Origin: Candidatus Nomurabacteria bacterium | Lineage (GTDB): Bacteria; Patescibacteriota; Minisyncoccia; Phycocordibacterales; UBA9973 | DNA length: 64,000 bases | Assembly (NCBI GenBank): GCA_023267435.1 | Contig: JAHFNH010000001.1 | Coordinates: 80,253-144,252 of the forward strand | Direction: 5' to 3' | Shown here: positions 4,972 to 60,601 of the stretch, piece after piece | How the letters are laid out: each line of letters starts with the position of its first letter | Position numbering within the stretch: the stretch's first letter is position 1 | The notes under the pieces: model-generated | What the model was told of the DNA's origin: nothing | Seen by the model: only the letters and a program-made list of their open reading frames with translations | Databases searched by the model: none | Made by a program: the position numbers and the translations under genes

Positions 4972-4975
4972 ATTA

Positions 4976-10900: not shown

Positions 10901-11053
10901 ATTACTTGATGGCGCACTTTTAGTACCATCTGTTTTAACAGAAGCATCTTGCGCGAAAGTTATAGGCGTGAGAGAAATAAAAAAACCTAAAACAAGAAAG
11001 AAAACTACAGCTCTAACTAACACTAACGAACATAAAAATTTCTTTATATTCAT
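4976..11053 (-). CDS. Giant secreted SpvB/FG-GAP/RHS-repeat polymorphic toxin (Tc-toxin BC-like) with a C-terminal M15/LAS zinc-peptidase-like toxin domain
   Basis: N-terminal signal peptide and SpvB-like block PNLSLQYNSQ..GYGWSMNIPYIQR. Six DxNGDGxxD FG-GAP/VCBS motifs and many YD/RHS repeats (YTYDGLGRR, YAYDNAGNMT, YQYDNAGNRV). RHS core YYVHTDHLGSTN...YYKAGVGQFISQD and autoproteolysis-type motif NMKDPSGK. The tail has SAHYVGTAVD and LRWGGDF..DGVHID. Confidence 0.85.
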   Translation of the reverse strand: MNIKKFLCSLVLVRAVVFFLVLGFFISLTPITFAQDASVKTDGTKSAPSSNVSDTNTTDVALPDLSAKDINAKVTATDNISAIKKDAPSGGTISSEDTLTPTVEKNKSPNPTVSPMNQTNEYANVKKSIAQTDPSTGALVYSYTIAVPPGRNNTQPNLSLQYNSQNLIQDSVFGYGWSMNIPYIQRVNKKGTNTLFTDNYFSSSLSGDLVNVSGGTYASKIEKGDFLKYSFSSNMWTVTDKTGTIYTFGTNTNTRQDDPNNFSHVYKWMLESVQDTNGNFISYTYYKNSSQIYPATITYSNHSASSGIFEIDFLRSSSRSDAMMSAAAGFPSTTNYLINEIDVKVNGTWTSKYVFNYIAGTNTNRSLLSSIIESGQDTNGTVTTLPATSFSYTQGTSGFTPSNQSSTYIPIDTHNGTIPADVNGDGYTDLIQAWNNVDYYYNSAKGIYLYHPSSDNWQLDTSRSVPSDIWIARHDNNGWGDASTKVIDVNGDGLNDMVRNDPYSSWGAQASYLNNGSGWTANPSWNPPFSYPQAVADLNGDGFSDYIKDVSVWPSPVTTSIAWDTGSNFSTYNASVGQTFASPEFLNDQVFADVNGDGLADIIKSTYGVPPAQPSGMFQSVYLNTGTGWVLDSSYTLPSDFIILTRTQNGNVFNREIFQDINGDGLVDILYPYQLGGACGASCTNLKVYINQGHSWVWDINWNTGANLGINDYIDLNPGLLFDANGDGQADILNQGNYFDGITNHITNNVFFNKTTLPVDLLASITLPTGGQTNVTYKMSNHYKDGNGNLLNPSLPLNLPTTYQITTNDGNGNTGTTTYSYQGGSYFFNGSTDRKFAGFNKVIETDPAGNTTATYYHTGIGTDSSHGEYNDDEWKIGQPYRIEKTDSSTNLYSVVVNKWDDYDLGNGNKFVKLTSTTALTYDGTSSHRDTAEEYSYDNVYGNLIQKTSWGEVTANTDGSFTDIGSDKSIENILYIANTGNNVTGLPYDDTVFDQNGAKVNETRNYYDRLALGSVGLGNQTKIEKWLTGITFVNTQKSYDGVYGNVVSLTDENGHVTSYSYDSYHLYPATVTDALNHSVNYLYNYSLGKPKQITDQNGFVYKTEYDGLDRVLVEKVPDLITPSILVTKTAYVYTDIAGAVSIHKTDYLNASNSVDTYQYFDGLGRIIQNRKETETSNNFNVSDYVYNNLGMIQKQSLPYTGTGLVKTFPNTNVSLYTIYIYDPMGRVLNSVNSVGTTSYVYNLWKISVTDPRGKIKDTYSDARGNLIRVDEHNSGSTYTTAYSWNLNGKVKNITDALSNVRNFTYDGLGRRLTAEDLHTPGDTTFGIWTYAYDNAGNMTQSVSPEAKTTNYTFDVLNRMLTENYTGATGTEISYFYDSCTNGISKICGIVMPSGANISYTYDSNGNITSETKTINSNIFVTSYVYDEQGNVTIMTYPDNAQVRYTFNTAGLLNQIERKENAGSFTNVISNIDYSPMNQVAVINYANGTTTTNTYNASQMYRLSNKFTTNGNGISLQNIVYTYDMDNNIIQIIDTSNTSATKNVVYAYDDLNRLVVAFATGVPAGQTPYTQNFTYNAVGNILNKSDVGNYLYQGNTGTNYANPHAATSINSVTNTYDKNGNLLTDGTIINTWNYKNELVQVTKNVNLSNSRSPIAQPVQNSITLVYQYDNAGNRVRMQKGSVNTYYPNNFYNTDGTKKTKSIYIGDQLVATVETVGGVVTPYYVHTDHLGSTNVVSNTTGTSVQLLDYFPFGSQRISSGTYNTQRQYIGQVYDTDTGLDYLNARYYKAGVGQFISQDSMFWQLPQELLLDPQQQNSYSYARDNPVNMKDPSGKIAVLSAIKSFLNSINSFLSKGSTQTVLSGQKTSTSDSGTTLVNYKGNNFLNSTNKVPVDFTKDLNRLNQYAGKNDVKLQIESSGVRIKGDPIPGDVYHKQGEVTENSAHYVGTAVDVNIQYKNNNKDIMCGSSCLNSGFNSLPNPVQGFVGDVRNDSGLRWGGDFNRVDGVHIDNGLYQHNPNEYLRRFNILQN

Positions 11054-12617: not shown

Positions 12618-14375
12618 TTAAACTTCTTCTGGTAAAAATCCTCCGGCTTGCATGTGCCACAAATTGGCATACTTTCCATTCTTTTTTAATAATTCCTCAT
12701 GCGTGCCGTCTTCAATAATCTTGCCATTTTCAAGAAAGATAATTCTATCCATGAATTGCAAAGTGGAAAGGCGGTGAGCTATTGCTATCACAGTTTTGTT
12801 TTGCATCAGAACTTTGAGTGCTGTTTGCACTTTTGCCTCACTGTCGCTATCGAGTGCGCTTGTGGCTTCATCGAGAATGAATAACGGACTGTTTTTTAGA
12901 ATTGCCCGAGCAATAGCAACTCTCTGTCTTTGCCCACCAGAAAGCTTCACTCCGCGCTCCCCGACAATGGTGTCATAACCTTTCGGCAATGTCTGAATAA
13001 ATTCATCTGCGTATGCCATTTTTGCCACTTCTATTATTTTTTCTCTCGGAACTTCCAGTGATCCATACTGAATATTTTCTGCGATGGTCGTATGGAAAAG
13101 AGAGGTATCTTGAGAAATAAAAGAAATATGTGAACGAAGAGATTCTTGAGTTATTTCCGAAATATCAAGGCTATTGATAATTATTTTTCCTTCTTGCGGA
13201 TCAAAAAATCTAAGCAGTAAATTTATCAAGGTTGTCTTCCCTACTCCGCTCAAGCCGACAATGCCAATCTTTTGTTTTGGTGGAATAATTAAAGAAAAAT
13301 GATCCAGAATATTTTTGTTTTCATTGTAAGTAAAACTGACATCCTGATAAATAACATCAACTGTGTCCCATTTGTTTACGATATGATTCTTGCCGTCATT
13401 CACGGAAGGTTCAACCAAAAGATCTTTAAGCACTTGGGAACATTCACTATAATTTCTAGTAAATTCTGAAAGGCTGTTTCCTGCATTGTAAACATAACTT
13501 ATTATCTTTAAACCGACGCCCGATATGAGCACCATCTCACCTATACTGATGAGTCCATGATTATATCCTCGAGCGGTTAGAATAATAAAAGCACATCCAA
13601 GCAAAACTGCCGAAACTCCCTGATACAGATAAACTAACACAAACCATTTACCCATGCTCAACTGTGAGTGATATTCTTTGTCGATTTGATTGTATATCCG
13701 CTGTTGATCAAAATCCCTGCTATACACTTTCACGGATGAAATATTAGTATAAATATCTACGAGTGCTCCGGTAGTGTTAGAACTGTCTTCCGCAAACATT
13801 TCTGCATATAAATTTATTTTTTTAATAAATGGACGAATTCCGACAATAAAGACAATCACCCACACAACAATCGCGAGACCAAGAGGTGGATACACGAGAG
13901 TCATTGTAACCATACTGATAACTACCAGCACGATGTTATCAATAAAATTATTCGTGACATTGTTTTTCATCGATTCAAGAGTATCTGCCGCGGTGCTTAT
14001 TTTGTGAGAAATTTGTCCAGCAAATCTATCGGCAAAATAACCAAAGGAAAGCTTCGAAGTATGAGCAAAAAGATATTTTTTAACATTTCGCCTAATACGA
14101 GAACTGACAGTGACTTCCAGCACATGGCCAATGCGATAAGAAAATTCATTGGTAAACAATGTAATAACAAGAAGTATTGTAAGTATTTTTACGTTGCCAT
14201 TGCCGGCATTTAAAGCATCAATAATCTTTCCTAAAAAATACGAAATGCCTATTGAGGTAAAAGTTCCTATGCCGTAAAACAAGCTGTTCAAAAGTATCCA
14301 TTTTATTTCTTTGGAATTAGTGGCTAGAAAAAACTTTAACGGATTATTATAATTTTCAGATTTTATTTTGTTCAT
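12618..14375 (-). CDS. ABC transporter permease/ATPase fusion (MsbA-like exporter)
   Basis: N-terminal 6-TM domain. Walker A GLSGVGKTT, signature LSGGQRQRVAIARA, Walker B ILDEATSALD. Confidence 0.85.
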   Translation of the reverse strand: MNKIKSENYNNPLKFFLATNSKEIKWILLNSLFYGIGTFTSIGISYFLGKIIDALNAGNGNVKILTILLVITLFTNEFSYRIGHVLEVTVSSRIRRNVKKYLFAHTSKLSFGYFADRFAGQISHKISTAADTLESMKNNVTNNFIDNIVLVVISMVTMTLVYPPLGLAIVVWVIVFIVGIRPFIKKINLYAEMFAEDSSNTTGALVDIYTNISSVKVYSRDFDQQRIYNQIDKEYHSQLSMGKWFVLVYLYQGVSAVLLGCAFIILTARGYNHGLISIGEMVLISGVGLKIISYVYNAGNSLSEFTRNYSECSQVLKDLLVEPSVNDGKNHIVNKWDTVDVIYQDVSFTYNENKNILDHFSLIIPPKQKIGIVGLSGVGKTTLINLLLRFFDPQEGKIIINSLDISEITQESLRSHISFISQDTSLFHTTIAENIQYGSLEVPREKIIEVAKMAYADEFIQTLPKGYDTIVGERGVKLSGGQRQRVAIARAILKNSPLFILDEATSALDSDSEAKVQTALKVLMQNKTVIAIAHRLSTLQFMDRIIFLENGKIIEDGTHEELLKKNGKYANLWHMQAGGFLPEEV

Positions 14376-15570
14376 TTTTTTTATTAAAATTAAAATAAAT
14401 TACGGCGAAAATAATGCTGATTACTGCTAATACAGAAAGAGTGATACGCATGCTTGATAAGTCTATCATGATACCTAAAACAATCGGTCCGGTGATTTCT
14501 GCTACTTGCGACACACCTTCAAATGCTCCGCTCAATGTGCCAATGTGTTCTTTCGGAACCGCAAGCGTTATTTCCCTATCAACTGATAGGCCTAACAATT
14601 GAAGACATGAACCAATCAAAAATACTAAAACCAACTGCGCTGGAAATATTGGAATAAAAGCAAGGAGAAATAAGAAAACTGTTAAAAATCCACATGTCCA
14701 AAATATTGTGTGTTTATATTTATCGGCAATTAAACCAAGAGGAGAACTAAATAAAGCCGGAAAAGCTGCAAAACCAGTTAGTAAAACAATTTGCCAAAGA
14801 CTTTGGTGTTGAGTAAAAGCATAAATAGGAATAAAAAACTCTCCGACTGTGGCTGTTATATCAATAAACAAATAAAATACTGCAAGCCAGCGTACGTTCC
14901 TGCCCCAAGAAATAATTGTTTTGAAAAAACTTCCATAAGAACCGAAAACTGAGAGACGAGCTTCTTTGGTAAGAGATGAAGCAGTCAGTCCATCCGGTAG
15001 TTTGCGCACGAAATAAATCGCAATGAGCGAAGTCGGAGCAATCATTAAAAATAAATAATGAATAGGAATATATCGTACAAGTATCGCACTAATGAAAATA
15101 GCCACGAGCCACCAGAAATTTGCCAATGAATCCATATATCCGAATGAAGTAGCAATATTTTCGGGCTTAGCGTGAGTGCGCACATAAGTAGCTCGTCCGA
15201 CACCATCGAGAGCATAAGCAACGCCGTTGATAATACGCGCACAAACAATGAAAGCAATAACCCCAAATACTCCAGCGGAAAAATAACTGATACTGATAAA
15301 TGGATACAACAATAATGAAACAATCAAAAGTTTCTTACTGGCGATATTGTCAGCGAGCCAAGACACCATTGGAAGTGAAAGCAAAAATACAACTCCATAA
15401 ATAGAACGCAATAAACCTGTCTCAGCATAAGTGTGAGCGAAAGAGAAAAGGAAAATAGGCAAAAATGCCTCAGCAAACCCCCAACCGAACCAGCGGATAG
15501 ATGTGGCGATAGATATAAGTCGCACTCCTTCTTCAATATTTGGATTAAAAAGTTTAAAAAATTTCTTCAT
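14356..15570 (-). CDS. MFS transporter
   Basis: About 12 TM segments, 404 aa. Confidence 0.7.
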   Translation of the reverse strand: MKKFFKLFNPNIEEGVRLISIATSIRWFGWGFAEAFLPIFLFSFAHTYAETGLLRSIYGVVFLLSLPMVSWLADNIASKKLLIVSLLLYPFISISYFSAGVFGVIAFIVCARIINGVAYALDGVGRATYVRTHAKPENIATSFGYMDSLANFWWLVAIFISAILVRYIPIHYLFLMIAPTSLIAIYFVRKLPDGLTASSLTKEARLSVFGSYGSFFKTIISWGRNVRWLAVFYLFIDITATVGEFFIPIYAFTQHQSLWQIVLLTGFAAFPALFSSPLGLIADKYKHTIFWTCGFLTVFLFLLAFIPIFPAQLVLVFLIGSCLQLLGLSVDREITLAVPKEHIGTLSGAFEGVSQVAEITGPIVLGIMIDLSSMRITLSVLAVISIIFAVIYFNFNKKNEQNKI

Positions 15571-15603
15571 ATAAATGATTACTCAACTTGGTCATTTTAG
15601 CAT

Positions 15604-15650
15604 ATTTGTGATATTGTTTGGTTAGAAATTCAATTGTTGTCTAACTAAAA
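15604..15650 (+). promoter_or_regulatory. Copy 1 of the shared promoter/operator module (TGTGATATTGTTTGGTTAGA..TCTAACT)
   Basis: -10-like TATTGT with a TTAGA-n13-TCTAA inverted repeat, 15 nt upstream of the ATG at 15661. Confidence 0.5.
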
Positions 15651-15660
15651 ACTTAATAAA

Positions 15661-16149
15661 ATGTTCACATACAAAGAAATCGAAAAATCCTGTAAACGAC
15701 TGGGAATCGATACAGAAAAAAGAGGTAAAAATCCTTTTGCTTTGGCTAAAACAATTTACGCCAAAGATAAATCCGCGAACCTAAAAGAGCTAGGGTTCCC
15801 TGAAAAGGAAAAGGTTCAAATTGAAAAAATTGGCAAACTGATTAATAATTTATTTTCCCAACTCACATTTCCACGTTCTTTTAATTTAACAACCGAAGAA
15901 GGTAAATTAGAAAAAGAGATGGATGATAAAATAAGTAAATTTTTACCAACCGCATGTCTTAGCCAAAAAGAGTGGCTTCAATCTGGAGCTCAAAAAGCTT
16001 CACTAAATGTTTCAGATTTTTCTTTGGATTCAGGTATTGTTTATGAACTAGATAAAGAAAAAGTTAAAGCTATGAAAGATATGCACGATAGTGGTCCACG
16101 ATATGTCCGTCTTAATAGAGGTGGTCACAATAGAAGATTTGGTGGATAA
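15661..16149 (+). CDS. Hypothetical protein
   Basis: 162 aa, preceded by a copy of the shared promoter module. Confidence 0.4.
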   Translation: MFTYKEIEKSCKRLGIDTEKRGKNPFALAKTIYAKDKSANLKELGFPEKEKVQIEKIGKLINNLFSQLTFPRSFNLTTEEGKLEKEMDDKISKFLPTACLSQKEWLQSGAQKASLNVSDFSLDSGIVYELDKEKVKAMKDMHDSGPRYVRLNRGGHNRRFGG

Positions 16150-16217: not shown

Positions 16218-16688
16218 CTATCTAAGCAATTTATACATATAGTATCTGGGATAATCTAATCCTTTTAATTCGGAAAATAATTTCATCCCTATTTTTTCAT
16301 AAAAAACTTTTGATTCCCCTGTGGCAAGCATAACGACTTTCTTCTTCCATCGTTTTTTAATTTCACAGAACAATCCTTTCATAAAAATTGTTCCCAGACC
16401 TTTCCCTTTATATTCCGGTTTTACCGCAAGGTATTCGATTGATACCACTGAAGAAGTGTATTCATCTTGCTTTATTCGCGCAGATGCAAACAATTTTCCA
16501 TCCTTATACAACCCATAGACAATACCTTTGTCTAAATCCGGAGAAACACTAAGACTGTTAGCAATAAATCCGAGCATTAATTTTTTATAATTTTTCTTAT
16601 TAGACGGACCTGATAAATAGGAAAGTTCAACAATTTCATCTATTGAAGTTGTTGGAGTTATGATTTTAACATCGAATTTTGTTTTCAT
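16218..16688 (-). CDS. GNAT family N-acetyltransferase
   Basis: Motif A-like VSIEYLAVKPEYKGKGLGT. Confidence 0.7.
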   Translation of the reverse strand: MKTKFDVKIITPTTSIDEIVELSYLSGPSNKKNYKKLMLGFIANSLSVSPDLDKGIVYGLYKDGKLFASARIKQDEYTSSVVSIEYLAVKPEYKGKGLGTIFMKGLFCEIKKRWKKKVVMLATGESKVFYEKIGMKLFSELKGLDYPRYYMYKLLR

Positions 16689-16754
16689 TTGTCTATATTT
16701 ATTTAGTTAGAACTATGTTTATTTCTAGTTTCAGACTATCAACAAACCATTTAC

Positions 16755-16836
16755 AAGTCAACATACTTGTGATATTGTTTGGTTAAATAAATTCCTGAAA
16801 AATAATCGAGCAATAGCTCATTAAAAACTTAAAACC
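16755..16836 (+). promoter_or_regulatory. Copy 2 of the shared promoter module, plus the 5'UTR block CGAGCAATAGCTCATTAAAAA
   Basis: AAGTCAAC-n6-GTGATATTGTTTGGTTA. The UTR block recurs at 32966. Confidence 0.45.
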
Positions 16837-17412
16837 ATGCTGATACTTAAAAAATTTCCTGAAATTAAGGATTGGGCACTGGATATAATGTCTAATACCC
16901 TACAATTTGAAACCGAACTTCCATATGAGTTGGGTCTAATCAAACAAACTTCGTTATTTGTTAAAAAAACAATTAGATTAAAAATTATAAGAAACCAATT
17001 TTATTGGGGAACTTTAGGTTACGACAATACAATAACCATTGTAGAGAGATTGGAAGGTTGGCAAAAGCTTCAAACAATTGGGCATGAAGTAGGACATGTT
17101 CTTGTTGATCATCACAACGACTTATACTGCTTGAAAGAACACCGTACAAAAGAATCTTTCCTGATTGATAAGGAAACGGGTAAAGAATTTATCGAAAATT
17201 GGCACGTTGAACTGGAGAAACAGGCGCAGGTATATTATCCTCCAACAGATTTTCGTTCCAGAGAAAATATAGTTGAAATATTATGCGATGAGATAGGAAT
17301 TTATTTTACTCAAAGAGTAAATAAGTTTAATAATCTTGAGTGTTATAGGGAAATTTGTCCTGACCAGCTACTTCTCTTTTCTGATGATGTTTTAAAAGCT
17401 CTTAAAAAATAA
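16837..17412 (+). CDS. HExxH motif protein, possible ImmA/IrrE-like zinc metallopeptidase
   Basis: IGHEVGHVLVDHH. 191 aa. No partner HTH gene seen. Confidence 0.35.
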   Translation: MLILKKFPEIKDWALDIMSNTLQFETELPYELGLIKQTSLFVKKTIRLKIIRNQFYWGTLGYDNTITIVERLEGWQKLQTIGHEVGHVLVDHHNDLYCLKEHRTKESFLIDKETGKEFIENWHVELEKQAQVYYPPTDFRSRENIVEILCDEIGIYFTQRVNKFNNLECYREICPDQLLLFSDDVLKALKK

Positions 17413-17485: not shown

Positions 17486-17641
17486 TTAAATACGCAAATC
17501 AATTATTCCAAAAATTGCTAATAATAACACTGTAAAGGAAAAAACAGCTGAAATTATTGCAAAATAAAAGGAGCTGTTTAAAATAATTCGTTCAACTAAT
17601 GTTTGCTCGTATTCAGTATACTCATTTTTAAAAGTCTTCAT
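17486..17641 (-). CDS. Small (51 aa) single-TM protein, below the ORF-track threshold
   Basis: MKTFKNEYTEYEQTLVERIILNSSFYFAIISAVFSFTVLLLAIFGIIDLRI. A terminator hairpin (aacctgagtaaattcaggtt plus T-run) follows the stop on the minus strand. Confidence 0.3.
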   Translation of the reverse strand: MKTFKNEYTEYEQTLVERIILNSSFYFAIISAVFSFTVLLLAIFGIIDLRI

Positions 17642-17699
17642 TTTATTTAAGTTTTTAATTTTTAGAACTCCGTTTATTATCTATCCCTATACTACTATC

Positions 17700-17781
17700 A
17701 AATCTTTGACCTGTCAACGCATTTATGATATTGTTTGGTTAGAAATTTTGTTATTGTCTAACTCTCTAAATACCTTGAAAA
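17700..17781 (+). promoter_or_regulatory. Copy 3 of the shared promoter/operator module
   Basis: TTGACCTGTCAA palindrome, TGATATTGT, GGTTAGAAATTTTGTTATTGTCTAACT. Confidence 0.5.
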
Positions 17782-18195
17782 ATGAAAAATCTAACTATTT
17801 TATTAGACCCAGCATATACTCTTGACTGGCGCGTGCTATTTATTTTCATAATTTTTTTTATCATTGCAATGTTTCTTATAAAGAGAACAATAGACAAGTC
17901 GTCTAAAACAGTTATCATTGAACCTGACAAAACCCTTCAACTTCAGGAGCTTCTTCTTAAAAGAACTATCATTGTTTTAAGAACAGACAGGAAATTACCA
18001 ATTGTTCAATATATTGAAGATTACCAAGAAGGTCTTAACACGGGAATGTTTGCTAATACATTTTATCTTGATAATTACGGTGAAGATAAATTATTAGAAG
18101 GAAAAACGTACGACATCGAATCAACCGGCAAAGGACAAATTCGATCATTGCGACAAGTTTCAATGTTGATTTGCGAAGATTTTATTGTGCATTAG
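17782..18195 (+). CDS. Hypothetical N-terminal TM protein
   Basis: 137 aa with TM segment WRVLFIFIIFFIIAMFLI. Confidence 0.4.
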   Translation: MKNLTILLDPAYTLDWRVLFIFIIFFIIAMFLIKRTIDKSSKTVIIEPDKTLQLQELLLKRTIIVLRTDRKLPIVQYIEDYQEGLNTGMFANTFYLDNYGEDKLLEGKTYDIESTGKGQIRSLRQVSMLICEDFIVH

Positions 18196-25684: not shown

Positions 25685-26110
25685 TTATTCAAGAAGAAGA
25701 AGCCAATTTGTAGGAAATTCGAGTTCTATCAAAGAGACAAGCGTATGAAATGTGATTGTTTTTTCAATCTCATGACACCATAATTCATGGTGTTGATACT
25801 CAAATCTTTCTTTCCATTCTTTTTTTGACTTAGCAGTTCCTACAATAGCCGAAGATGGAGCATAAGATAATCCAATTATTGATTCTCTTAAATCGAACAA
25901 ATCTTTTTTCATATTAAAAAATATATACCCCATAGGCTTTTTATTGATAGCAACGAACACGGTTACACTATTGCGAGTTTTCCTGTACTGAAGAAGGAGT
26001 TTGTAAGGTCCAAATTCAATTTCAGAAGTAACAATGGGCGTATAATAAATTTGCTTATTGTTAGGCTCAGACTCTTGTCTGTTTTCTAACCAAATAATTT
26101 TTTTATTCAT
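25685..26110 (-). CDS. Hypothetical protein
   Basis: 141 aa, no motif. Confidence 0.35.
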   Translation of the reverse strand: MNKKIIWLENRQESEPNNKQIYYTPIVTSEIEFGPYKLLLQYRKTRNSVTVFVAINKKPMGYIFFNMKKDLFDLRESIIGLSYAPSSAIVGTAKSKKEWKERFEYQHHELWCHEIEKTITFHTLVSLIELEFPTNWLLLLE

Positions 26111-28424: not shown

Positions 28425-28676
28425 TTATTTTACTAATCTAGTTAAACGAGATTTCTTTCGAGCAGCTGTGTTTTTCTTGATAGCACCCTTTTGAGCGGCT
28501 TTGTCGATAGCTTTGTAAGCTTCTGAAAGCATTTTTTGTGCTCCAGACTTGTCTGTCTTTGAGATTTTATCAATTTTCTTGATAACTTCTTTCATTGTTC
28601 GCTTTCGGCGGTCATTAAAAGCCTTCTTGCGAAGAGAACCGCGGATCGCTTTTTTAGCTGATTGTGTTATAGGCAT
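28425..28676 (-). CDS. rpsT: 30S ribosomal protein S20
   Basis: MPITQSAKKAIRGSLRKKAFNDRRK. The start was moved to the internal Met, which gives a typical 83-aa length. Confidence 0.8.
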   Translation of the reverse strand: MPITQSAKKAIRGSLRKKAFNDRRKRTMKEVIKKIDKISKTDKSGAQKMLSEAYKAIDKAAQKGAIKKNTAARKKSRLTRLVK

Positions 28677-31957: not shown

Positions 31958-32030
31958 GCGCCCGTAGCTCAGTCGGTAGAGCAGCTCCCTTTTAAGGAGA
32001 CGGTCGTTGGTTCGATTCCAACCGGGCGCA
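31958..32030 (+). tRNA. tRNA-Lys, anticodon UUU
   Basis: GCGCCCG acceptor, D-arm GCTCAGTCGGTAGAGC, anticodon loop CTTTTAA, T-arm GGTTCGATTCCAACC. Followed by a compound hairpin. Confidence 0.85.
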
Positions 32031-32095
32031 CAAAACGAGAATTTAACAAAAGCACCCTGCGGTGCTTTTGTTCGTTTTGTGCGAGCCACAGTCAT
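32020..32095 (+). terminator. Compound hairpin/terminator overlapping the tRNA-Lys 3' end
   Basis: Outer stem gcacaaaacga/tcgttttgtgc, inner stem aaaagcacc-ctgc-ggtgctttt. Confidence 0.5.
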
Positions 32096-32231: not shown

Positions 32232-32262
32232 AATAAAAAACCCCTTGAATTTCAAGGGGTTA
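32232..32262 (-). terminator. Terminator for the minus-strand gene 32275..32856
   Basis: ccccttgaa-ttt-caagggg with a T-run on the minus strand. Confidence 0.5.
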
Positions 32263-32274
32263 AATTAAGTACAA

Positions 32275-32856
32275 TCATGAACCAACATAACATATTTCTT
32301 TTCCAATAGGATGTCGTACACATCTTACAATATGTACACGAGATATTACGTCTTTTGAAAAACCGTTCATTTCCAAAAGTGTTTTCAAAGATTTTTTAGG
32401 AGTAAAAGATATGTCATTTACTTTAACAATGTCTGTTCTTTCTTTCCAATCTACTTCGTGCATCCAATCATAGAAACAATTTCTTACATAATGCTTATAA
32501 GCAAAATAACTTCTTGTGTCATCTCGTTCTCCTGCTTTGTATGGATTAAGAAGAACATTTTCAAGCAAATACATATCACCAGGTTTATAATCATCAAGAC
32601 GTTCTATTTTCCCCTGATATGTAAGTTCAATTTCACGAGTATTATCGTAATTACTCAAAACATCTTTCATGAGTTCCATAAAACTTATATTTCTTAAAAA
32701 AGATTGTTTCTTCTCTAGATCAATCCCGAGTAAAATAAAATAATAAGAAAGTGGTTCTTCGCTAGATGGAATGTGTAATACTTTTACATTTAAAGAATCA
32801 GAAAATAAATCTGTTCTCTCCTTAAGTTGATCTAGAATATTTTTTTCTATATTCAT
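32275..32856 (-). CDS. Hypothetical protein
   Basis: 193 aa, no motif. Confidence 0.4.
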   Translation of the reverse strand: MNIEKNILDQLKERTDLFSDSLNVKVLHIPSSEEPLSYYFILLGIDLEKKQSFLRNISFMELMKDVLSNYDNTREIELTYQGKIERLDDYKPGDMYLLENVLLNPYKAGERDDTRSYFAYKHYVRNCFYDWMHEVDWKERTDIVKVNDISFTPKKSLKTLLEMNGFSKDVISRVHIVRCVRHPIGKEICYVGS

Positions 32857-32904
32857 TTTTCTATAGTATTTGATTGTTTAAGGACTCTGTTTATTTCCTC
32901 AACA

Positions 32905-33001
32905 CAATATCACAAAAACATTGACGAGTCAATAAATATTTGGTATTGTCTGGTTAGACATTTCTGATAACTAACCGAGCCTAGCTCATTAAAAAATAAA
33001 A
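32905..33001 (+). promoter_or_regulatory. Copy 4 of the shared promoter/operator module (TTGACGAGTCAA, TATTGT, GGTTAGACATTTCTGATAACTAACC)
   Basis: 40 of 41 nt identical to the copy at 34432 (ATCACAAAAACATTGACGAGTCAATaAATNTTTGGTA). Confidence 0.55.
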
Positions 33002-33979
33002 ATGGAAACAAAACCTAAACTTAAATTGTATGAGAAATTAACCTCAGCGTTATATTTCTTGCATTATGATGTAACTTCACAGGTTCTTTCTTTTTTCATA
33101 CATAAGTCTTGTGTAGAAAATTTAGAAAAACTAGCTGAAGGTAATAATCTTCTTGAGATTTATAAAAATAAGTATTTTCCTGAACAAACCTCTTACACAA
33201 GTTACCTTAAAACTGTTCATGGTTTTAATGATTGTGGTAAGGTTGAGGGAATATTTGGTAATTTCTTAAAAATTTCTTTTAAACTTTTACCCCTTTACAC
33301 TTTTACTGAAGAAATATGTTCGGAATGTAAAGGAACTGGCAAGCACAATGTTTTTGATTTGAATTGTAATCAATGTCATGGAACAAAAAAAGAATTAGTT
33401 TTCAATAGAGAACCATTACTTGCAATAACCAATACAATTTCTTTATTACTTGCTCTCTTAGATTGTTATATAGCAATCTACGAATCAGATTCGTCTTTTG
33501 AAGAAAAATACACTGAGTCACTATATGTAATACGAACAATTACAGAACGTGACATGAATGGTCATGCAATGGGCGGATCTATGAGTGGTTTTTTTAAAAA
33601 AGCTATTGAGGATTATTTTAATCACAGTGTTTCTGCCGGCAAATCTTATAAATCTATTAGTGGAGAGTCTGTTTGTTGTGAACAAGTTGAAAAAGATATG
33701 GAACAAACATACAAAATGTTAATGGCTAATCCTTTCGCAACTAAATCAGATTTACATTCAATAACAGCTCTTGTAAGAGATGGGGGTTTCTTTTACCTAG
33801 AAACTAATGGGACTAATGGATGTAACTTTTATACATCCAATCAGGGAATGAATACATATTGGTATAAAGGAAAAGATAAAGGTTTACCAATTTCTTGTCA
33901 CAATGTTGATGGTCCTTTACAACAAATCATATTACTGATTGGTTTAGCAAGATTAAGTGAAGATATTATTTTGTCCTAA
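33002..33979 (+). CDS. Hypothetical protein with a DnaJ-type CxxCxGxG zinc-finger pair
   Basis: CSECKGTGK and CNQCHGTKK. Confidence 0.4.
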   Translation: METKPKLKLYEKLTSALYFLHYDVTSQVLSFFIHKSCVENLEKLAEGNNLLEIYKNKYFPEQTSYTSYLKTVHGFNDCGKVEGIFGNFLKISFKLLPLYTFTEEICSECKGTGKHNVFDLNCNQCHGTKKELVFNREPLLAITNTISLLLALLDCYIAIYESDSSFEEKYTESLYVIRTITERDMNGHAMGGSMSGFFKKAIEDYFNHSVSAGKSYKSISGESVCCEQVEKDMEQTYKMLMANPFATKSDLHSITALVRDGGFFYLETNGTNGCNFYTSNQGMNTYWYKGKDKGLPISCHNVDGPLQQIILLIGLARLSEDIILS

Positions 33980-34078
33980 TTTTTAAAGCACTACTTATTG
34001 TAGTGCTTTTTATTTCCCCCCTACATCGCCTTAAAGAAATTAAAACAAAAAAAGAAGTATTTCTACTTCTTTTAATTC

Positions 34079-34384
34079 TTAACTTGTAACTTTTGCCAAA
34101 ACTTCCATTAAAGTATCAAAACTGTAATTTAGACAAACTTCCATATCCTTTATACAATCTTTTTCTTCAGCAGGATTATTAAGAAATTCTTCTTTAAAGT
34201 ACTTTTTTGATGCATAGTTTTTTTCTGTGCCTACAGAATTTCTAATTTCTTTGCAAAAATTTTTGTAAAGTTTTGGTCCAAGTACCTGTGCGATTTCTGT
34301 ATTTATAGAAACAGAATGTATTAATTTTCTATTATAATGAAAATGTATCTTTCCAGCGAGTTTAAAAGCTTCTTTAGTTAACAT
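34079..34384 (-). CDS. Hypothetical protein
   Basis: 101 aa. Terminator aagaagta-tttc-tacttctt downstream. Confidence 0.35.
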   Translation of the reverse strand: MLTKEAFKLAGKIHFHYNRKLIHSVSINTEIAQVLGPKLYKNFCKEIRNSVGTEKNYASKKYFKEEFLNNPAEEKDCIKDMEVCLNYSFDTLMEVLAKVTS

Positions 34385-34429
34385 GTTTTTATTTTTTAGA
34401 GTTAAACAACAATTATATTTTCAAATAAA

Positions 34430-34524
34430 CCATATCACAAAAACATTGACGAGTCAATGAATGTTTGGTAATGTAACAACAGAACATCGCTATTTAAAAT
34501 AAAATCTCACTAAAAATAAAACAA
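34430..34524 (+). promoter_or_regulatory. Copy 5 of the shared promoter module plus a conserved 5'UTR (..TCTCACTAAAA..)
   Basis: ATCACAAAAACATTGACGAGTCAATGAATGTTTGGTAATGT. Confidence 0.55.
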
Positions 34525-34872
34525 ATGAAAAATAAGTATATTTGGTTAGTTGTCCACAAATGGGGCAAAAACCTAGAAAAAATAACCGGTAGTTTAGTTC
34601 TTACAGAGACTACCGACATTTCAGAATTAAAGAAGGTCTATTCAAGTGGAAATGCCCCTACTGCATATATGGAAGGCGATAAAACATTTGTAAAACTTCT
34701 AAATGAAAAAAGAGAATTAAACAAAAAGGGAGATATTCTTTTCAATGAAAACATACTGGAACTAGATTCACTAAATATCTTGTCTGAAGCTCTTGTAAAA
34801 TTTTTGAATCCAAAAAAGGAATGGGTATTAGTACACCAAAAAACAATTGTTCTAAGAAAAAACAAAAAATAG
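34525..34872 (+). CDS. Hypothetical protein
   Basis: 115 aa. Terminator aaacgttgcat-aaaa-tgcaacgtttt follows at 34884..34912. Confidence 0.4.
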   Translation: MKNKYIWLVVHKWGKNLEKITGSLVLTETTDISELKKVYSSGNAPTAYMEGDKTFVKLLNEKRELNKKGDILFNENILELDSLNILSEALVKFLNPKKEWVLVHQKTIVLRKNKK

Positions 34873-34929
34873 AACTTTATCAAAAAACGTTGCATAAAAT
34901 GCAACGTTTTTTATTTTTTATTTCGGTGT

Positions 34930-35454
34930 TTACCTCATCACCTCTCCAACAGCTTCATCTTCAAGATCTTTATCCGCATCTGCTTTAGTGATGTGTATGC
35001 GTCCGTCGATATGATTTGGCGGAGCGTAGACTGTATATATTTTCAGTGAACTCGTGCCTGTATTTATAAAATTATGTTTTGTACCCGGTGGCACCACGAC
35101 GACATCCCCTGCGCTGATAGGACTTTCCTTTCCATCTAAAACTGCTTTACCGACACCACTTAAAAAGAACAAGGTCTGTTCGGTGTATTTATGCGTTTCT
35201 TCGCCGACTTCCCCACCTGGCGGAATATCCATGACGACGAGCTGGCTTCTCGTGCCGGTAAAAAGAACTTTTCTAAAATATGTATTTTTCTCTACTTCAT
35301 TCACTATGTTTGTTGTATAAGGCATATGAGCTTTGCTACTTATTAATAATAATTCACTATTTTGTTTATTTTGATAAAAGTAAATTGTTCCAACTAAGGC
35401 AGCAATCAAAACCAGTACAACTAAAATCAAATGCCATTTTTTAAGTTTTTCCAT
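34930..35454 (-). CDS. Membrane-anchored cupin-domain protein
   Basis: N-terminal TM. Cupin_2-like GEETHKY..FFLSG.G......ISAGDVVVVPPGTKHNF. Confidence 0.65.
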   Translation of the reverse strand: MEKLKKWHLILVVLVLIAALVGTIYFYQNKQNSELLLISSKAHMPYTTNIVNEVEKNTYFRKVLFTGTRSQLVVMDIPPGGEVGEETHKYTEQTLFFLSGVGKAVLDGKESPISAGDVVVVPPGTKHNFINTGTSSLKIYTVYAPPNHIDGRIHITKADADKDLEDEAVGEVMR

Positions 35455-35499
35455 AATATGTTTATTATAACACTATCACCTAAAGTTTGGTGATATAAC

Positions 35500-35610
35500 T
35501 TTTACAAAAACATTGACGGGTCAACAAATCTTTGGTAAAGTAACAAAAAGATTGCGTTGTTTGAAAAATTAACAAATTCACTGAATATTCTCACTAAAAC
35601 AATAAATAAA
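35500..35610 (+). promoter_or_regulatory. Copy 6 of the shared promoter module plus 5'UTR
   Basis: TTACAAAAACATTGACGGGTCAACAAATCTTTGGTAAAGT. UTR homologous to copy 5. Confidence 0.55.
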
Positions 35611-36015
35611 ATGAAAAAGAAAATTGAAATTTGGAAAAGACAAAGAATTATATTCTTGATCTTGGGTATTATTATCACAGTAGTATCACTGTATTTTTTA
35701 CTCAAAAGTGAAACTGGATTGCCCTTATATCCTATTTCAGGAATGATTTTAGGGGCTATTATTGCTTTTGGCTGTGCTGTACATCTTGTCTTAGGATATC
35801 CTGTCCTACAACGAAAAGGCTTCAATACCAACCAGGAAATAAAAACATTGTCTTTGTTTAAAAAAGAGGAAATAGGAGGAGTAACTTTGTATGTTTATGA
35901 AATAGAAATCAAAATCCTCAATAAGGAAGAAACTTTCTTGCTTGAAGATACTGTTTGTTTAAAAATCGGTGATTCATATATACTGACAGTAGATAAAAAA
36001 TGGGCTCAAAAATAA
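35611..36015 (+). CDS. Hypothetical membrane protein. The start is taken at MKKKIEIWKRQ rather than the ORF-track start at 35557.
   Basis: Two TM segments. Terminator ccttgca-gaaa-tgcaggg plus T-run follows at 36023..36046. Confidence 0.4.
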   Translation: MKKKIEIWKRQRIIFLILGIIITVVSLYFLLKSETGLPLYPISGMILGAIIAFGCAVHLVLGYPVLQRKGFNTNQEIKTLSLFKKEEIGGVTLYVYEIEIKILNKEETFLLEDTVCLKIGDSYILTVDKKWAQK

Positions 36016-36052
36016 AAAATGTCCTTGCAGAAATGCAGGGATTTTTTATTTC

Positions 36053-55600: not shown

Positions 55601-57448
55601 TTATTTATCTTGGGCGACACATTGATCGTATAAACTCTTTCTTAGAGGAGCTTCTTTTTGTGTAAATGCATCATTGCCATTACAGCTTCCGGATGTATAC
55701 ATTCTAAAAGTTCCTTCTATACTTCCGCATAGTTTATAGACTTTAGTCATATATTCTGATGCTACTAAAATATCTGTTGTATTATTATTTAATAAGTCTT
55801 TTGGAAAAATGGTGGTTGTGTTGGGTACAGTTGTAACTGTAATACCTTTATTATAATTAGCTCCTTTAGTTGAACCACTTGGGAAAAATGTAACACCAAA
55901 AAGTCCGACTGAATGAGAAAATCTCCAGTCTAAACCAAGATCATTCGCACTTGAGTTTAATTGATCGTTGTTTAGGAAAGAATGGTCCGTAATTTTTGGA
56001 TCAGTGCTATTTCCTGCTGGAAAACTTGTGCCATCGAATTTTTTACCTGACGCAATAAAATCTTTTCTAGATGGAACACCTGCAGATGGAACATTTTCAT
56101 CATGGCCAATGAGCCCTGTGACACCTCTAGATTCTCTTTGAATTGCCACTTGCAATAGACAGTGTGGAATATTGTATTCTTGTTTTACTGCGATAGTTTT
56201 TATTTGATCATAAAAGCTTGTTCTTTGGAAAGCTGTATCTGTTCCTTGTGTTTGAGAGAGGTTGTAATTATTTCCAGATGAATCAAATACCACTGACGCA
56301 TCATTTATCCCACTCAAACTCACATCTAGTAGTTGAGGATTAATAGTATTCAATAAAACATAAGAACCAAGTGCAATCAAAAGTCCAAAGATAGCATTAC
56401 CAATCCTTTTTCTACCTTCTTCTTTAGAAGTCATTAATTCACTAGTCACATACTCTATTCCACCTATTACTATCATTACAAAAGATAATACAGCACATAA
56501 TCCGATGAATATTCGAATCATTGTATTAAAATACTTACCAAAAACATTACCTTGAGTAGAATCAATGATTGTTATAGTATTTCCTCCTCCTGTTCCCTCA
56601 CCTGCCTTTGTTGGTAGTGGAGCAAGGAGTTGATATGTAGTGTCTGAATTGGGTGGAGGTAGAGTAACGGGTGTTATTTCAACTTGTACTTTTTTAGGGC
56701 TGAAGGTTTTAACAGTAGTGCTACAAACTTTATCAAAAGTATTTTCAGCACAGGCTGTATAGTAATACATTGTGCCTTCCACCATATTCTGCCCCTTATA
56801 TTTTTCTATAGAATTTTTGAAATCTATAGAAGCTTGGTTGTAATTTTCATCTCCATATAAACTATTTAGAGTCTTATGTGTTGTTTCAGCATCTAAATTA
56901 GCACTACTCAATCCATATTTAAACCACACAGTCACAGGATTCTTATTATTCTGCACCGTTCCTACCAACGTAGCACCTAAACCAGTTAGATTAATTATAT
57001 CTTTTGTATATACAGTCGGTGGTCTGCTTTCACTGATGACATGAGTTCCACCACCACTCGTATCAAAATCATCTTGAAACAATCGAACAACTTTATTATC
57101 GGGATACACACCTTCTATTCTATAAGTAAATAAATGCATGGATGCGGTGTATGGAAAAAGGTTTGTTGAATATGCAAAAGTAAGAGGCGCTGTACTTGCT
57201 GGGTCATATGATATATCAAGTTGTTTTGAAAATAATGCTGTTGTGTGATCTTTCTGATATATATATAGATAATAATAAACTGGTACTGGTTCTGTTAAAG
57301 AATCAATAACAACATGACCATTAACAGAGAAGGTTGTTCCCGTTATATCTGTTTTGTCGACTATTACATGCGCAGCCGCCTTAGCCTGAGATGCAATAAA
57401 AAAAGCAGAGATGATGAGCGTTAAGAATATGTATTTTAGGGTTTTCAT
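55601..57448 (-). CDS. Secreted single-TM cell-wall hydrolase paralog A, with a C-terminal lysozyme/SLT-like domain (T4SS-associated, VirB1/CwlT-like)
   Basis: Signal peptide and internal TM (IRIFIGLCAVLSFVMIVIGGI). C-terminal VAIQRES... and ..EYMTKVYKLCG..RMYTSGS resemble SLT blocks. The central 758 bp is identical to paralog B. Confidence 0.5.
   Translation of the reverse strand: MKTLKYIFLTLIISAFFIASQAKAAAHVIVDKTDITGTTFSVNGHVVIDSLTEPVPVYYYLYIYQKDHTTALFSKQLDISYDPASTAPLTFAYSTNLFPYTASMHLFTYRIEGVYPDNKVVRLFQDDFDTSGGGTHVISESRPPTVYTKDIINLTGLGATLVGTVQNNKNPVTVWFKYGLSSANLDAETTHKTLNSLYGDENYNQASIDFKNSIEKYKGQNMVEGTMYYYTACAENTFDKVCSTTVKTFSPKKVQVEITPVTLPPPNSDTTYQLLAPLPTKAGEGTGGGNTITIIDSTQGNVFGKYFNTMIRIFIGLCAVLSFVMIVIGGIEYVTSELMTSKEEGRKRIGNAIFGLLIALGSYVLLNTINPQLLDVSLSGINDASVVFDSSGNNYNLSQTQGTDTAFQRTSFYDQIKTIAVKQEYNIPHCLLQVAIQRESRGVTGLIGHDENVPSAGVPSRKDFIASGKKFDGTSFPAGNSTDPKITDHSFLNNDQLNSSANDLGLDWRFSHSVGLFGVTFFPSGSTKGANYNKGITVTTVPNTTTIFPKDLLNNNTTDILVASEYMTKVYKLCGSIEGTFRMYTSGSCNGNDAFTQKEAPLRKSLYDQCVAQDK
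56295..57052. repeat. 758-bp perfect direct repeat, copy 1
   Basis: Base-for-base identical to 59448..60205 on visual alignment. Coding in both copies. Confidence 0.8.
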
Positions 57449-58852: not shown

Positions 58853-60601
58853 TTAAATTCTCTTAAAATGGTTTATTATTTTTCCATATTTACTAATGAT
58901 ATTAAAAATAGTGAATGCTTGTCCAGAGCTTCTGCCGTTGTGAGCTGCTGTTGATTCAGCAGCTTTTCCACCTCCAATATAAACAAAAGCATGACCTACA
59001 GATGTTCCAGGTGTGCCTGTGGTCCAACCAACAACATCTCCTGGTTTAAGTGCTTGTCCATTTAAAACAGTTTCACCATTTGCTTCAGTTTGCGTTGTGA
59101 TTGTTTCTAATCCTGTGCCTGTGCTGAATGCCATACCAGAACTTCCTCCAGGAGGATTTAATCCGGCGCATTCCAAAACATAATCAACAAAACCAGTGCA
59201 ATCAAGACATATTGTGCCAGTCGGACAAAAACTACTGCAGGCTATATTATTATCACACATTTTTGTGTCTGAAGGGTAAGGAGCTGGACCGCCCTTGCCG
59301 CCAAAACGATAAGTCACCTTGCCGTTTAGACTATTTACAATCTCAGCTATTCTAGCTGATCCACCAGCTTTGGGACAAACGATTCCTGTCGGAGGAGTAA
59401 AATTTAATGACACAGGCGAATTCGTGAATCCACCACTGTTAGTTATCGACGCATCATTTATCCCACTCAAACTCACATCTAGTAGTTGAGGATTAATAGT
59501 ATTCAATAAAACATAAGAACCAAGTGCAATCAAAAGTCCAAAGATAGCATTACCAATCCTTTTTCTACCTTCTTCTTTAGAAGTCATTAATTCACTAGTC
59601 ACATACTCTATTCCACCTATTACTATCATTACAAAAGATAATACAGCACATAATCCGATGAATATTCGAATCATTGTATTAAAATACTTACCAAAAACAT
59701 TACCTTGAGTAGAATCAATGATTGTTATAGTATTTCCTCCTCCTGTTCCCTCACCTGCCTTTGTTGGTAGTGGAGCAAGGAGTTGATATGTAGTGTCTGA
59801 ATTGGGTGGAGGTAGAGTAACGGGTGTTATTTCAACTTGTACTTTTTTAGGGCTGAAGGTTTTAACAGTAGTGCTACAAACTTTATCAAAAGTATTTTCA
59901 GCACAGGCTGTATAGTAATACATTGTGCCTTCCACCATATTCTGCCCCTTATATTTTTCTATAGAATTTTTGAAATCTATAGAAGCTTGGTTGTAATTTT
60001 CATCTCCATATAAACTATTTAGAGTCTTATGTGTTGTTTCAGCATCTAAATTAGCACTACTCAATCCATATTTAAACCACACAGTCACAGGATTCTTATT
60101 ATTCTGCACCGTTCCTACCAACGTAGCACCTAAACCAGTTAGATTAATTATATCTTTTGTATATACAGTCGGTGGTCTGCTTTCACTGATGACATGAGTT
60201 CCACCTGTGACACTTGTATCAAAATTATTACCCGGAGAGTTTAAGAAAACAGGAGGCGGAGTGTTGTTGTAGTAAACCCCTATTATTTTATAAGTAAATA
60301 AATGTTTTGTTGAAGTAAACTGGCTTATGTTTATTGAGTAATGAAACGTAAGAGTTTGAGGATCAATAGTAATCGGACTGCTTTGTATTAATGGTGCTGA
60401 TTTTCCTTGTTCATACAGAAAAAAAAAGTAATTCATTGGCATTTGCTGTATTGGGAAAGCCATAACCTTACCATCTATTGCTATAGTTGTGCCAGTTATG
60501 TCTTGTTTAGTTATGTCTATAGCGATTGTGGCTTTAGCCGGAGATGCAATAAAAAAAGCAGAGATGATGAGCGTTAAGAATATGTATTTTAGGTTTTTCA
60601 T
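58853..60601 (-). CDS. Secreted single-TM cell-wall hydrolase paralog B with a C-terminal NlpC/P60 endopeptidase domain
   Basis: LDCTGFVDYVLECAG (Cys nucleophile block) and GDVVGWTTG..GHAFVYIGG (His block). Shares the identical middle region and a near-identical signal peptide with paralog A. Confidence 0.6.
   Translation of the reverse strand: MKNLKYIFLTLIISAFFIASPAKATIAIDITKQDITGTTIAIDGKVMAFPIQQMPMNYFFFLYEQGKSAPLIQSSPITIDPQTLTFHYSINISQFTSTKHLFTYKIIGVYYNNTPPPVFLNSPGNNFDTSVTGGTHVISESRPPTVYTKDIINLTGLGATLVGTVQNNKNPVTVWFKYGLSSANLDAETTHKTLNSLYGDENYNQASIDFKNSIEKYKGQNMVEGTMYYYTACAENTFDKVCSTTVKTFSPKKVQVEITPVTLPPPNSDTTYQLLAPLPTKAGEGTGGGNTITIIDSTQGNVFGKYFNTMIRIFIGLCAVLSFVMIVIGGIEYVTSELMTSKEEGRKRIGNAIFGLLIALGSYVLLNTINPQLLDVSLSGINDASITNSGGFTNSPVSLNFTPPTGIVCPKAGGSARIAEIVNSLNGKVTYRFGGKGGPAPYPSDTKMCDNNIACSSFCPTGTICLDCTGFVDYVLECAGLNPPGGSSGMAFSTGTGLETITTQTEANGETVLNGQALKPGDVVGWTTGTPGTSVGHAFVYIGGGKAAESTAAHNGRSSGQAFTIFNIISKYGKIINHFKRI
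59448..60205. repeat. 758-bp perfect direct repeat, copy 2
   Basis: See copy 1. The offset is 3153 bp. Confidence 0.8.

Follow-up and report, generated by a model that had tools for sequence, protein, structure and literature searches.

Homologous, probably two-way promoter-plus-leader modules reused before unrelated small genes in variable islands of a Patescibacteria genome

Why should nearly the same promoter-like sequence, with a palindrome at its centre, stand before a series of small genes that do not resemble one another? The question is raised by a stretch of 64,000 nucleotides (nt; hereafter the window) from contig JAHFNH010000001.1 of assembly GCA_023267435.1, which belongs to an uncultured Paceibacterota / Minisyncoccia (Patescibacteria) genome. 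The sequence occurs there in six copies, copies 1 to 3 in island 1 (15589, 16750 and 17706) and copies 4 to 6 in island 2 (32921, 34446 and 35513). In an initial annotation they were described as a promoter/operator family whose segments had been shuffled between the islands. To our knowledge, almost nothing is known about transcription control in candidate-phyla-radiation bacteria. Our comparison indicates that the copies are probably homologous modules of about 150 base pairs (bp), each a two-way promoter with its leaders, reused before unrelated small orphan genes in islands of Patescibacteria.

The relatedness of the copies was evident at several levels. The 21-mer ACAAAAACATTGACGAGTCAA was found three times, at 32912 and 34437 without mismatch and at 35504 with one, while shuffles of the window gave an expectation of 0.00. 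Furthermore, TTGACNNGTCAA occurred four times in the window (17706, 32921, 34446 and 35513) vs. 0.12 expected, and the longer pattern running through TTTGGTA, TTGACNNNTCAANNAATNTTTGGTA, matched exactly in all three island-2 copies. Pairwise identity reached 91% over 46 nt between copies 4 and 5, 91% over 34 nt between copies 4 and 6, and 88% over 43 nt between copies 5 and 6. A profile made from island 1 only retrieved copy 4 (E 2e-8) and the minus strand of copy 5 (E 4e-6), and one made from island 2 only retrieved copies 3 and 2 at 13.5 bits, where ten shuffled windows gave at most 7.6 bits. Because profiles from one island alone retrieved the other, the link between the islands is not circular. 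The intergenic regions of copies 2 and 4 could be aligned across all 151 nt compared (71.5% identity, E 5e-15). Copy 4 had been said to carry a GGTTAGA..CTAACC palindrome together with a block of the 5' untranslated region (UTR) seen at 16801, and both were located: GGTTAG lies at 32952-57 and CTAACC at 32971-76, CGAGCCTAGCTCATTAAAAA matches CGAGCAATAGCTCATTAAAAA at 16806, and the CGAGC..GCTCATTAAAAA block of copy 4 is also found at 16806. The annotation was therefore right that the family recurs three times in a second island, with near-identical copies at 32921, 34446 and 35513 related to those at 15589, 16750 and 17706. The multiple comparison of the six copies that it had called for brought out conserved spacers and leaders, beyond a generic -35/-10 likeness. 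Judged by these alignments, the modules are homologues. Copies 5 and 6 had been said to share roughly 100 nt of 5' UTR, which is overstated: the leaders are only about 50 and 69 nt, and the similar stretch of about that length spans the promoter and is interrupted by an insertion of about 20 nt in copy 6.

Both islands are low in GC (0.29-0.31 vs. 0.35-0.39 in the flanking regions) and hold nine intrinsic terminators each, where 1.5-1.6 were expected. The cargo genes would be monocistronic, and each ends in its own terminator. The tRNA-Lys beside island 2, also pointed out before, lies at 31958-32031. The features are as follows, with leader types A1, A2, B and C as defined further below, lengths of proteins in amino acids (aa), L numbers for loci in other genomes, TM for transmembrane and ORF for open reading frame.

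15589-16149, plus: copy 1, one-way; degenerate -35 TGGTCA, TGA TATTGT at 15609-15617, inverted repeat of GGTTAGA 15620-26 and TCTAAC 15640-45
15661 onwards, plus: orphan gene of copy 1, 162 aa
16218-17412, both strands: copy 2, divergent pair; core 16733-16778 with TTTACAAGTCAA at 16750-61; minus -10 TAGTCT, plus -10 TATTGT
16218-16688, minus: GNAT gene of copy 2, type C leader
about 16807-16820, plus: GAGC..GCTC in the type A2 leader of copy 2, followed by a 191-aa HExxH protein (16837-17412)
17486-18195, both strands: copy 3, divergent pair; core 17689-17734, palindrome 17706-17717; minus -10 TAGTAT without TG, plus TGA TATTGT
17486-17641, minus: 51-aa ORF of copy 3, type C leader
17782-18195, plus: 137-aa TM protein of copy 3, type A1 leader
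31958-32031, plus: tRNA-Lys(UUU), conserved left border of island 2
32275-32903, minus: minus unit of copy 4; type C leader 32857-32903 with core GAGTCCTTAAACAAT, terminator 32239-32261
32275-32856, minus: orphan gene of that unit, 193 aa, with a homologue (76% aa identity) behind the same leader in L104
32904-32949, both strands: two-way core of copy 4; minus -10 TATTGT (reverse complement of 32904-32909), TGA extension 32910-12
32921-32926, plus (TTGACG), and 32927-32932, minus (TTGACT): abutting -35 boxes of copy 4
32941-32949, plus: TGG and -10 TATTGT of copy 4
32950-33001, plus: type A2 leader of copy 4 with the GGTTAG/CTAACC repeat and a hairpin of GAGC 32977-80 and GCTC 32984-87; A-rich ahead of the ATG at 33002, no Shine-Dalgarno sequence, fold -9.7 kcal/mol (z -2.9)
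33002-33979, plus: cargo of copy 4, 325 aa, weak CxxCxGxG zinc-finger match; terminator 33985-34009
34079-34428, minus: minus unit of copy 5; type A1 leader 34385-34428 (family of copies 1 and 3) and 101-aa orphan gene 34079-34384
34429-34474, both strands: two-way core of copy 5; minus -10 TATGGT (reverse complement of 34429-34434) with TGA, palindrome 34446-34457, plus TGG TAATGT ending at 34474
34475-34872, plus: plus unit of copy 5; B-like unstructured leader 34475-34524 and 115-aa orphan gene; terminator 34882-34912
34930-35469, minus: cupin gene with its own TGTTATAAT promoter, conserved backbone outside the cassette
35470-36052, plus: copy 6 cassette, 583 bp; decayed left half, palindrome 35513-35524, -10 TAAAGT 35536-41
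35542-35610, plus: type B leader of copy 6, 5' arm of the long hairpin lost
35611-36015, plus: gene of copy 6, 134 aa, two-TM-like; terminator 36021-36042

A shared TTTTTATTTCC on the 3' side of genes was tried as a cassette boundary and dropped; it is the generic terminator tail of the clade, in which the tail TTTTTATTT is generic as well.

What, then, is the palindrome? The TTGACnnGTCAA-type dyad had been taken for an operator, and our results revealed a better explanation on the other strand. At copies 2, 3, 4 and 5 the minus strand carries TTGAC(T/A), then exactly 17 bp, then TAGTCT, TAGTAT, TATTGT or TATGGT; a TGn extension is present at copies 2, 4 and 5, and the minus promoter of copy 3 is without TG. 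The spacing is exactly 17 bp for the plus and the minus promoters of these four copies, and 'ATCACAAAAACA' is the reverse complement of the minus promoter's TGTGAT extended -10 and spacer. With -10 boxes mirrored at 17 bp on the minus strand, the best reading of TTGACnnGTCAA is a pair of abutting -35 hexamers that belong to divergent promoters. These minus promoters face the divergent genes 16218-16688 (GNAT), 17486-17641, 32275-32856 and 34079-34384, and two outward promoters in one intergenic region with genes on both sides were found at copies 2 to 5. As far as such boxes predict, most copies work in two directions, and the genes on the minus strand are part of the system. A TTGACA-like -35, a spacer of 17±1 bp, TGn and TAnnnT, as in sigma-70-type extended -10 promoters, were present in all six plus-strand copies (with a weak -35 in copies 1 and 2) and in the minus partners of copies 2, 4 and 5. 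ORFs start 41-52 nt after the -10, or 69 nt for copy 6 (ATG at 35611). A generic promoter scanner flagged 'TG before the -10' at only four sites of island 2, namely the plus promoters of copies 4 and 6 and the minus promoters of copies 4 and 5; in island 1 the flag fell on the plus promoters of copies 2 and 3 and on two overlapping AATAAT sites within the 51-aa ORF.

The remaining two copies are one-sided. In copy 6 the left arm has decayed, and the adjacent cupin gene retains its own TGTTATAAT box. Copy 1 is one-way, and 18 nt separate its weak -35 from the start of an MFS gene (14356-15570). The place where its -35 would be expected has TGCTAAAAT on the minus strand (15594-15602), which may be the promoter of this MFS gene; in that case copy 1 would be a divergent pair in compressed form, its -10 boxes only 12 nt from each other. 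Elsewhere in the window, the extended -10 promoters TGATATAAT (minus) and TGTGATATACT (plus) lie in the divergent region 2528-2637, in which there is no abutting -35 palindrome.

The same arrangement was met outside the window. A scan of 185,579 reference genomes, with a pattern that specified one promoter arm only, gave at least 112 loci, and many of those listed were from Patescibacteria (Paceibacterota, Nomurabacteria, Minisyncoccia, Saccharibacteria, Kerfeldbacteria and Daviesbacteria). Among the matches listed, a mirrored TGnTAnnnT stood 16-18 bp from the other hexamer in 23 of the 31 Patescibacteria sites (background 0.4%) and in 4 of the 83 sites outside Patescibacteria, counts which describe listed loci and not whole-genome prevalence. 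Nearly all of the listed Patescibacteria sites had outward-reading ORFs on both sides, and where the mirrored -10 was lacking (L008, L029, L104-3458, L065), an outward ORF was likewise missing from that side. Furthermore, the distance between opposed extended -10 boxes showed a sharp peak at 34 bp (25 pairs, other bins mostly 0-2); most of these pairs are scan-selected sites, and three more, unselected pairs with a TTGAC-type core lay at 33-34 bp. From the predicted boxes, the back-to-back design is a recurrent architecture of Patescibacteria.

The proposed working of a module is as follows. Two sigma-70-type extended -10 promoters would lie back to back with their -35 hexamers abutting as TTGACnnGTCAA; 17 bp on either side would come TGnTAnnGT and then a leader of 45-70 nt with an A-rich start region and no Shine-Dalgarno sequence. 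RNA polymerase with the primary sigma factor would presumably bind either arm, and each module would fire outward into two monocistronic genes, each with its own intrinsic terminator. Because the arms overlap, with about 60 bp between the predicted starts, simultaneous occupancy of both is probably impossible. Each spacer (e.g. ACAAAAACA) would lie at the place of the partner promoter's A-rich upstream (UP-like) element, and the spacers may be conserved without any regulator because they double as this element. The outer halves, of four or more leader types, would have been joined in different pairs at the shared core, and the modules propagated with, or in front of, unrelated small orphan genes in low-GC variable islands.

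The leaders, taken from the -10 to the ATG, clustered above the maximum of a shuffled null into at least four types.

Type A1: copy 1 plus, copy 3 plus, copy 5 minus, L082a minus
Type A2: copy 2 plus, copy 4 plus, L104b minus
Type B: copy 6 plus, L008 plus, L082a plus, L104a plus, L104b plus
Type C: copy 2 minus, copy 3 minus, copy 4 minus, L104c plus, L082b plus

Around the core these types were paired in several ways: C on the left with A2 on the right at copies 2 and 4, C with A1 at copy 3, A1 with a B-like leader at copy 5, A1 with B at L082a, and A2 with B at L104b. The idea of promoter and UTR segments being shuffled between islands was thus borne out as far as different leader combinations exist; the leader of copy 4, an inverted repeat plus GAGC hairpin, is not a recent recombinant of this genome, for these two elements are combined in the same way on the minus side of L104, in a related genome. 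Copy 5 bears an island-1-type leader on its minus side, a point the annotation had missed. Modular reuse of promoter plus leader is supported by these comparisons. The promoter of a 141-aa gene (25685-26110, TTGACA-17-TGCTATTGT) was tried as a seventh member and clustered with no leader type.

Some of the leaders may act as RNA. In relatives the type B leaders are about 125 nt and fold into a long, strong hairpin (z -3.8 to -6.3), whose pairing includes G-U pairs and is preserved by some double changes; the consensus folding covered four long leaders and was constrained by this small number and by the automatic alignment. These leaders of related metagenome-assembled genomes (MAGs), at L082:2237-2357, L008:383-509, L104:1528-1653 and L104:4924-5053, have an apical CUUCU..GGAGA-like stem, and, standing before unrelated small genes, they may be an undescribed cis-regulatory RNA. 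The core of the type C leader, GAGTYCTTAAACAAT, is also present in a Saccharibacteria-labelled MAG. This core (AACGGAGTTCTTAAACAAT and similar) was seen at L023:~5480-5520 (minus), L104:3486-3532, and in the window at 32857-32903 (minus) and 17642-17688 (minus); its near-identity in the Saccharibacteria-labelled MAG and in Paceibacterota relatives, before unrelated genes, would mean either deep conservation or a mislabelled MAG. The GGTTAGA/TCTAAC repeat of copies 1, 3 and 4 begins directly after the -10. Its left arm would be mostly untranscribed, to judge by the gap of 5-9 nt between -10 and ATG at apparently leaderless genes, and the repeat may be a DNA site, a short 5' stem or a relic. In the window, most genes have no Shine-Dalgarno sequence and many have a TATAAT-like box 5-9 nt upstream of the ATG (e.g. 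the minus-strand starts 37204, 39666, 47022, 53472 and 63471); this distance suggests that leaderless mRNAs are widespread in this organism.

The genes behind the modules had been called unrelated cargo, and this agrees with our results. In an all-vs-all blastp comparison of the flanking proteins only two pairs matched, both of them homologues between genomes: the 193-aa protein on the minus side of copy 4 with a 191-aa protein of L104, and the 61-aa ORFs of L097 and L117. The search of related genomes proposed earlier was rewarding as well. Syntenic loci were found in the MAGs JAVHNX01 (Candidatus Paceibacterota WB02no17_34_18) and JBAQFC01 (Minisyncoccia MFD12003 bin59), in which three of the four neighbouring proteins compared were about 80-87% identical and the fourth 55%, and in both MAGs the same cores and leaders precede genes without blastp similarity. 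Searches of the cargo proteins against PHROGs, PADLOC and NCBIfam gave only sub-threshold hints (HExxH metalloprotease-like for the 191-aa protein, DnaJ-type zinc finger for the 325-aa protein). The 191-aa protein (16837-17412, plus) has an HEVGH motif and weak matches to the phage metalloprotease phrog_87 (E 6e-4) and to CBASS CapP (E 2.5e-3), with no partner repressor evident.

Island 2 differs strongly between relatives. L097 has the order SpoU, tRNA-Lys, a 61-aa and a 206-aa gene diverging from one core, cupin, a 215-aa gene, PEMT and PolA; the window has three divergent pairs in the same place. The 215-aa gene is called 'holA' from its position alone, having no family match, and cupin directly follows it in L097. 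Only a core of 51 nt was retained between L097 and the window, at 92-94% identity, while the adjacent coding DNA was 75-81% identical. Window positions 35470-36052 (583 bp with the promoter, leader, 134-aa gene and terminator of copy 6) correspond to 20 bp in L097 (5331-5350), and on this alignment the copy 6 unit is a clean cassette indel between 'holA' and cupin. In JBAQFC01 the gene on the minus side of copy 4, together with its type C leader, is found in other contig surroundings. A hairpin TATCACC-N8-GGTGATA (35474-35495) coincides exactly with the left junction of the copy 6 unit, abutting cupin's TGTTATAAT box, and may be left over from the -10 region on the left of the module.

Several points count against the two-way promoter explanation. 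All promoter calls are consensus matches, and plain hexamer matches are not above shuffles in such AT-rich DNA; the Patescibacteria loci were chosen by the pattern itself. The palindrome is retained at sites without a divergent partner (copy 6, L008, L029, L104-3458, L004-9322) and is often extended to CATTGACnnGTCAATG. The core promoters are more conserved than coding DNA, which could reflect an extra bound factor or recent transfer. In a rival reading the palindrome, possibly extending to CATTGACnnGTCAATG, is the operator of a dimeric transcription factor under which accessory genes form a regulon. Because the palindrome overlaps both -35 boxes, a single protein could then block transcription either way, and such an operator could coexist with a two-way promoter. 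The retention of the palindrome at sites with no divergent gene, the extended dyads in copy 5, L023, L004 and L104, the conservation of the core across species and the several copies per genome ahead of functionally unrelated genes are consistent with this. However, none of the copy-flanking genes was seen to encode a DNA-binding protein, the bases beside the 12-mer are weakly conserved across Patescibacteria, the mirrored -10 boxes and the ORF association account for the dyad without any factor, and one-way relics are explicable by inheritance of the module. We therefore regard the regulon as unlikely, and an operator role of the dyad as unproven and probably secondary. Equally unlikely in our view is a wider reading in which the module is a phylum-wide 'plug-and-play' unit with interchangeable leaders A, B and C, some of them structured and type C common to distant classes, accessory orphan genes exchanged through recombination at the core, and a factor on the dyad and/or the leaders that would control the whole set. 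A generic resemblance of strong promoters in AT-rich DNA is hardly credible: TATTGT with TGG also occurs in the promoter of the S20 gene (28425-28676), and promoters here generally take the form of TTGACA with TGnTAnnnT, but the identity runs through spacers and leaders, and the recurrent 21-mer, the cross-island profiles scoring far over shuffles and the alignment of copies 2 and 4 refute it.

It is also conceivable that RNA function drives the conservation, the leader blocks being cis-acting elements such as stability hairpins, riboswitch-like structures or protein-binding sites. The type B hairpin of the relatives, the change of the GAGC/GCTC hairpin to GAGCC/GGTTC in L104 and the recurrence of the type C core speak for it. 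However, the leaders of copies 5 and 6 in the window are unstructured, copy 6 being without the 5' hairpin arm, the left arm of the GGTTAGA repeat falls between the -10 and the predicted start, and Rfam gave only two tRNAs at gathering scores and nothing credible at relaxed thresholds; with only four long leaders behind the hairpin, we think this quite unlikely to be the main cause. Alternatively, a mobile or recombinogenic element that actively inserts promoter-gene-terminator units might carry the modules or be identical with them; it could be a promoter-bearing miniature inverted-repeat transposable element (MITE), an integron-like cassette or a tRNA-linked island. The cassette indel, the full replacement of the tRNA-Lys-adjacent content between relatives with the core kept, the different locus of the copy 4 minus gene and its leader in JBAQFC01 and the low GC of the islands would fit. 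On the other hand, the copy-flanking genes and the precomputed Pfam lists (for the called genes from about 6.8 to 44 kb in the window) contained no integrase, transposase or recombinase family, the island held no tRNA-Lys repeat of at least 11 nt (att-like), so that the integrase and tRNA 3'-end repeat of a tRNA-linked integrative island were both missing, no target-site duplication or terminal inverted repeats of the MITE or Correia kind were evident at the copy 6 junctions, and viral contigs scanned with the 21-mer core gave no matches. We consider such an element very unlikely. The modules work like divergent promoters combined with promoter reuse, and not like a MITE, an integron cassette or a known RNA leader.

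Back-to-back divergent promoters are a classical form of divergent gene organisation, as in PR/PRM of phage lambda. As in the classical cases, two sigma-70-type promoters diverge here from one short intergenic region with overlapping upstream regions; the difference is that the -35 hexamers abut exactly as a 12-bp palindrome, that both arms have an extended -10 and 17-bp spacers, that the predicted starts are about 60 bp apart, and that the unit is repeated and conserved across genes and genomes. For the modules no repressor is known. In the bidirectional promoters of Warman, Grainger and colleagues the -10 elements are shared or overlapping and divergent starts are typically 18 bp apart, also commonly 10 and 23 bp, and mutually exclusive polymerase occupancy has been discussed for symmetric promoters (PMC12825309). 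Those promoters (PMC12825309 and its reference 16) resemble the modules in their pseudo-symmetric sequence, divergent transcription and expected competition between polymerase orientations. However, here the symmetry axis runs between the two -35 elements, the -10 is separate for each direction, and the -10 hexamers are 34 bp apart, which is a different arrangement from theirs. Matus-Garcia, Nijveen and van Passel (2012; PMC3575422) defined putative mobile promoters as upstream regions (-150 to -50) with an identity of at least 80% across 50 nt or more, before genes with dissimilar coding regions. They are similar to the modules in that highly similar upstream regions stand before non-paralogous genes, are common to related genomes and have no known mobile element attached (PMC3575422). 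The best pairs here reach 91% over 46 nt, which comes close to this threshold, 88% over 43 nt, and 71.5% over 151 nt. Unlike those promoters, the unit here is two-way, its halves are combinatorial, and it extends into the leader as far as about 20 nt before the ATG. Correia elements, ERIC and REPIN (per PMC3575422) are likewise short repeated intergenic DNA that supplies promoters to neighbours, but the modules showed neither terminal inverted repeats nor target duplications, and their copy number was not high. In a non-exhaustive literature search we found no description of the palindromic double -35 architecture or of these leader families in Patescibacteria.

If the modules work as read, start sites and divergent pairs could be annotated from a recognisable promoter architecture across thousands of uncultured genomes, variable accessory-gene islands would have a marker, and compact, strong two-way promoters and leaders might become useful for genetic tools in these organisms. 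A further lesson is to check the other strand before naming a palindrome over a -35 box an operator.

Some minor observations were made along the way. A metagenome scan with the island-2 pattern gave 24 loci, none of them related, which resemble promoters of other lineages. In the reference scan, the Elusimicrobia loci L017, L012, L022, L025, L043, L085, L096 and L099 shared TTGACAAGTCAA with TGCTATAGT and then a conserved ..ccataggcgacctcc..gaactcccc.., probably the promoter of a conserved non-coding RNA. In the Acidobacteriota loci L056, L091, L115, L118 and L094, TTGACTAGTCAA..TTGACTGGTAATGT is followed 6-7 nt on by the ATG of a conserved gene; this looks leaderless and possibly autoregulated, with repeated TTGAC half-sites. 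On the minus strand of the window, 4976-11053 encodes a protein of 2025 aa that is read as a polymorphic Rhs-type toxin because of its SpvB, FG-GAP, DUF6443 and YD-shell/RHS-repeat matches (a Peptidase_M15_4 match is weak), and the small genes downstream of it (3714-5037) could be immunity or orphan modules. Finally, 56295-56594 and 59448-59747 are identical over all 300 nt, and 57378-57448 and 60531-60601, at gene starts, are 96% identical over 71 nt; both kinds of stretch lie inside the neighbouring minus-strand paralogues 55601-57448 and 58853-60601, which suggests recent gene conversion or duplication.

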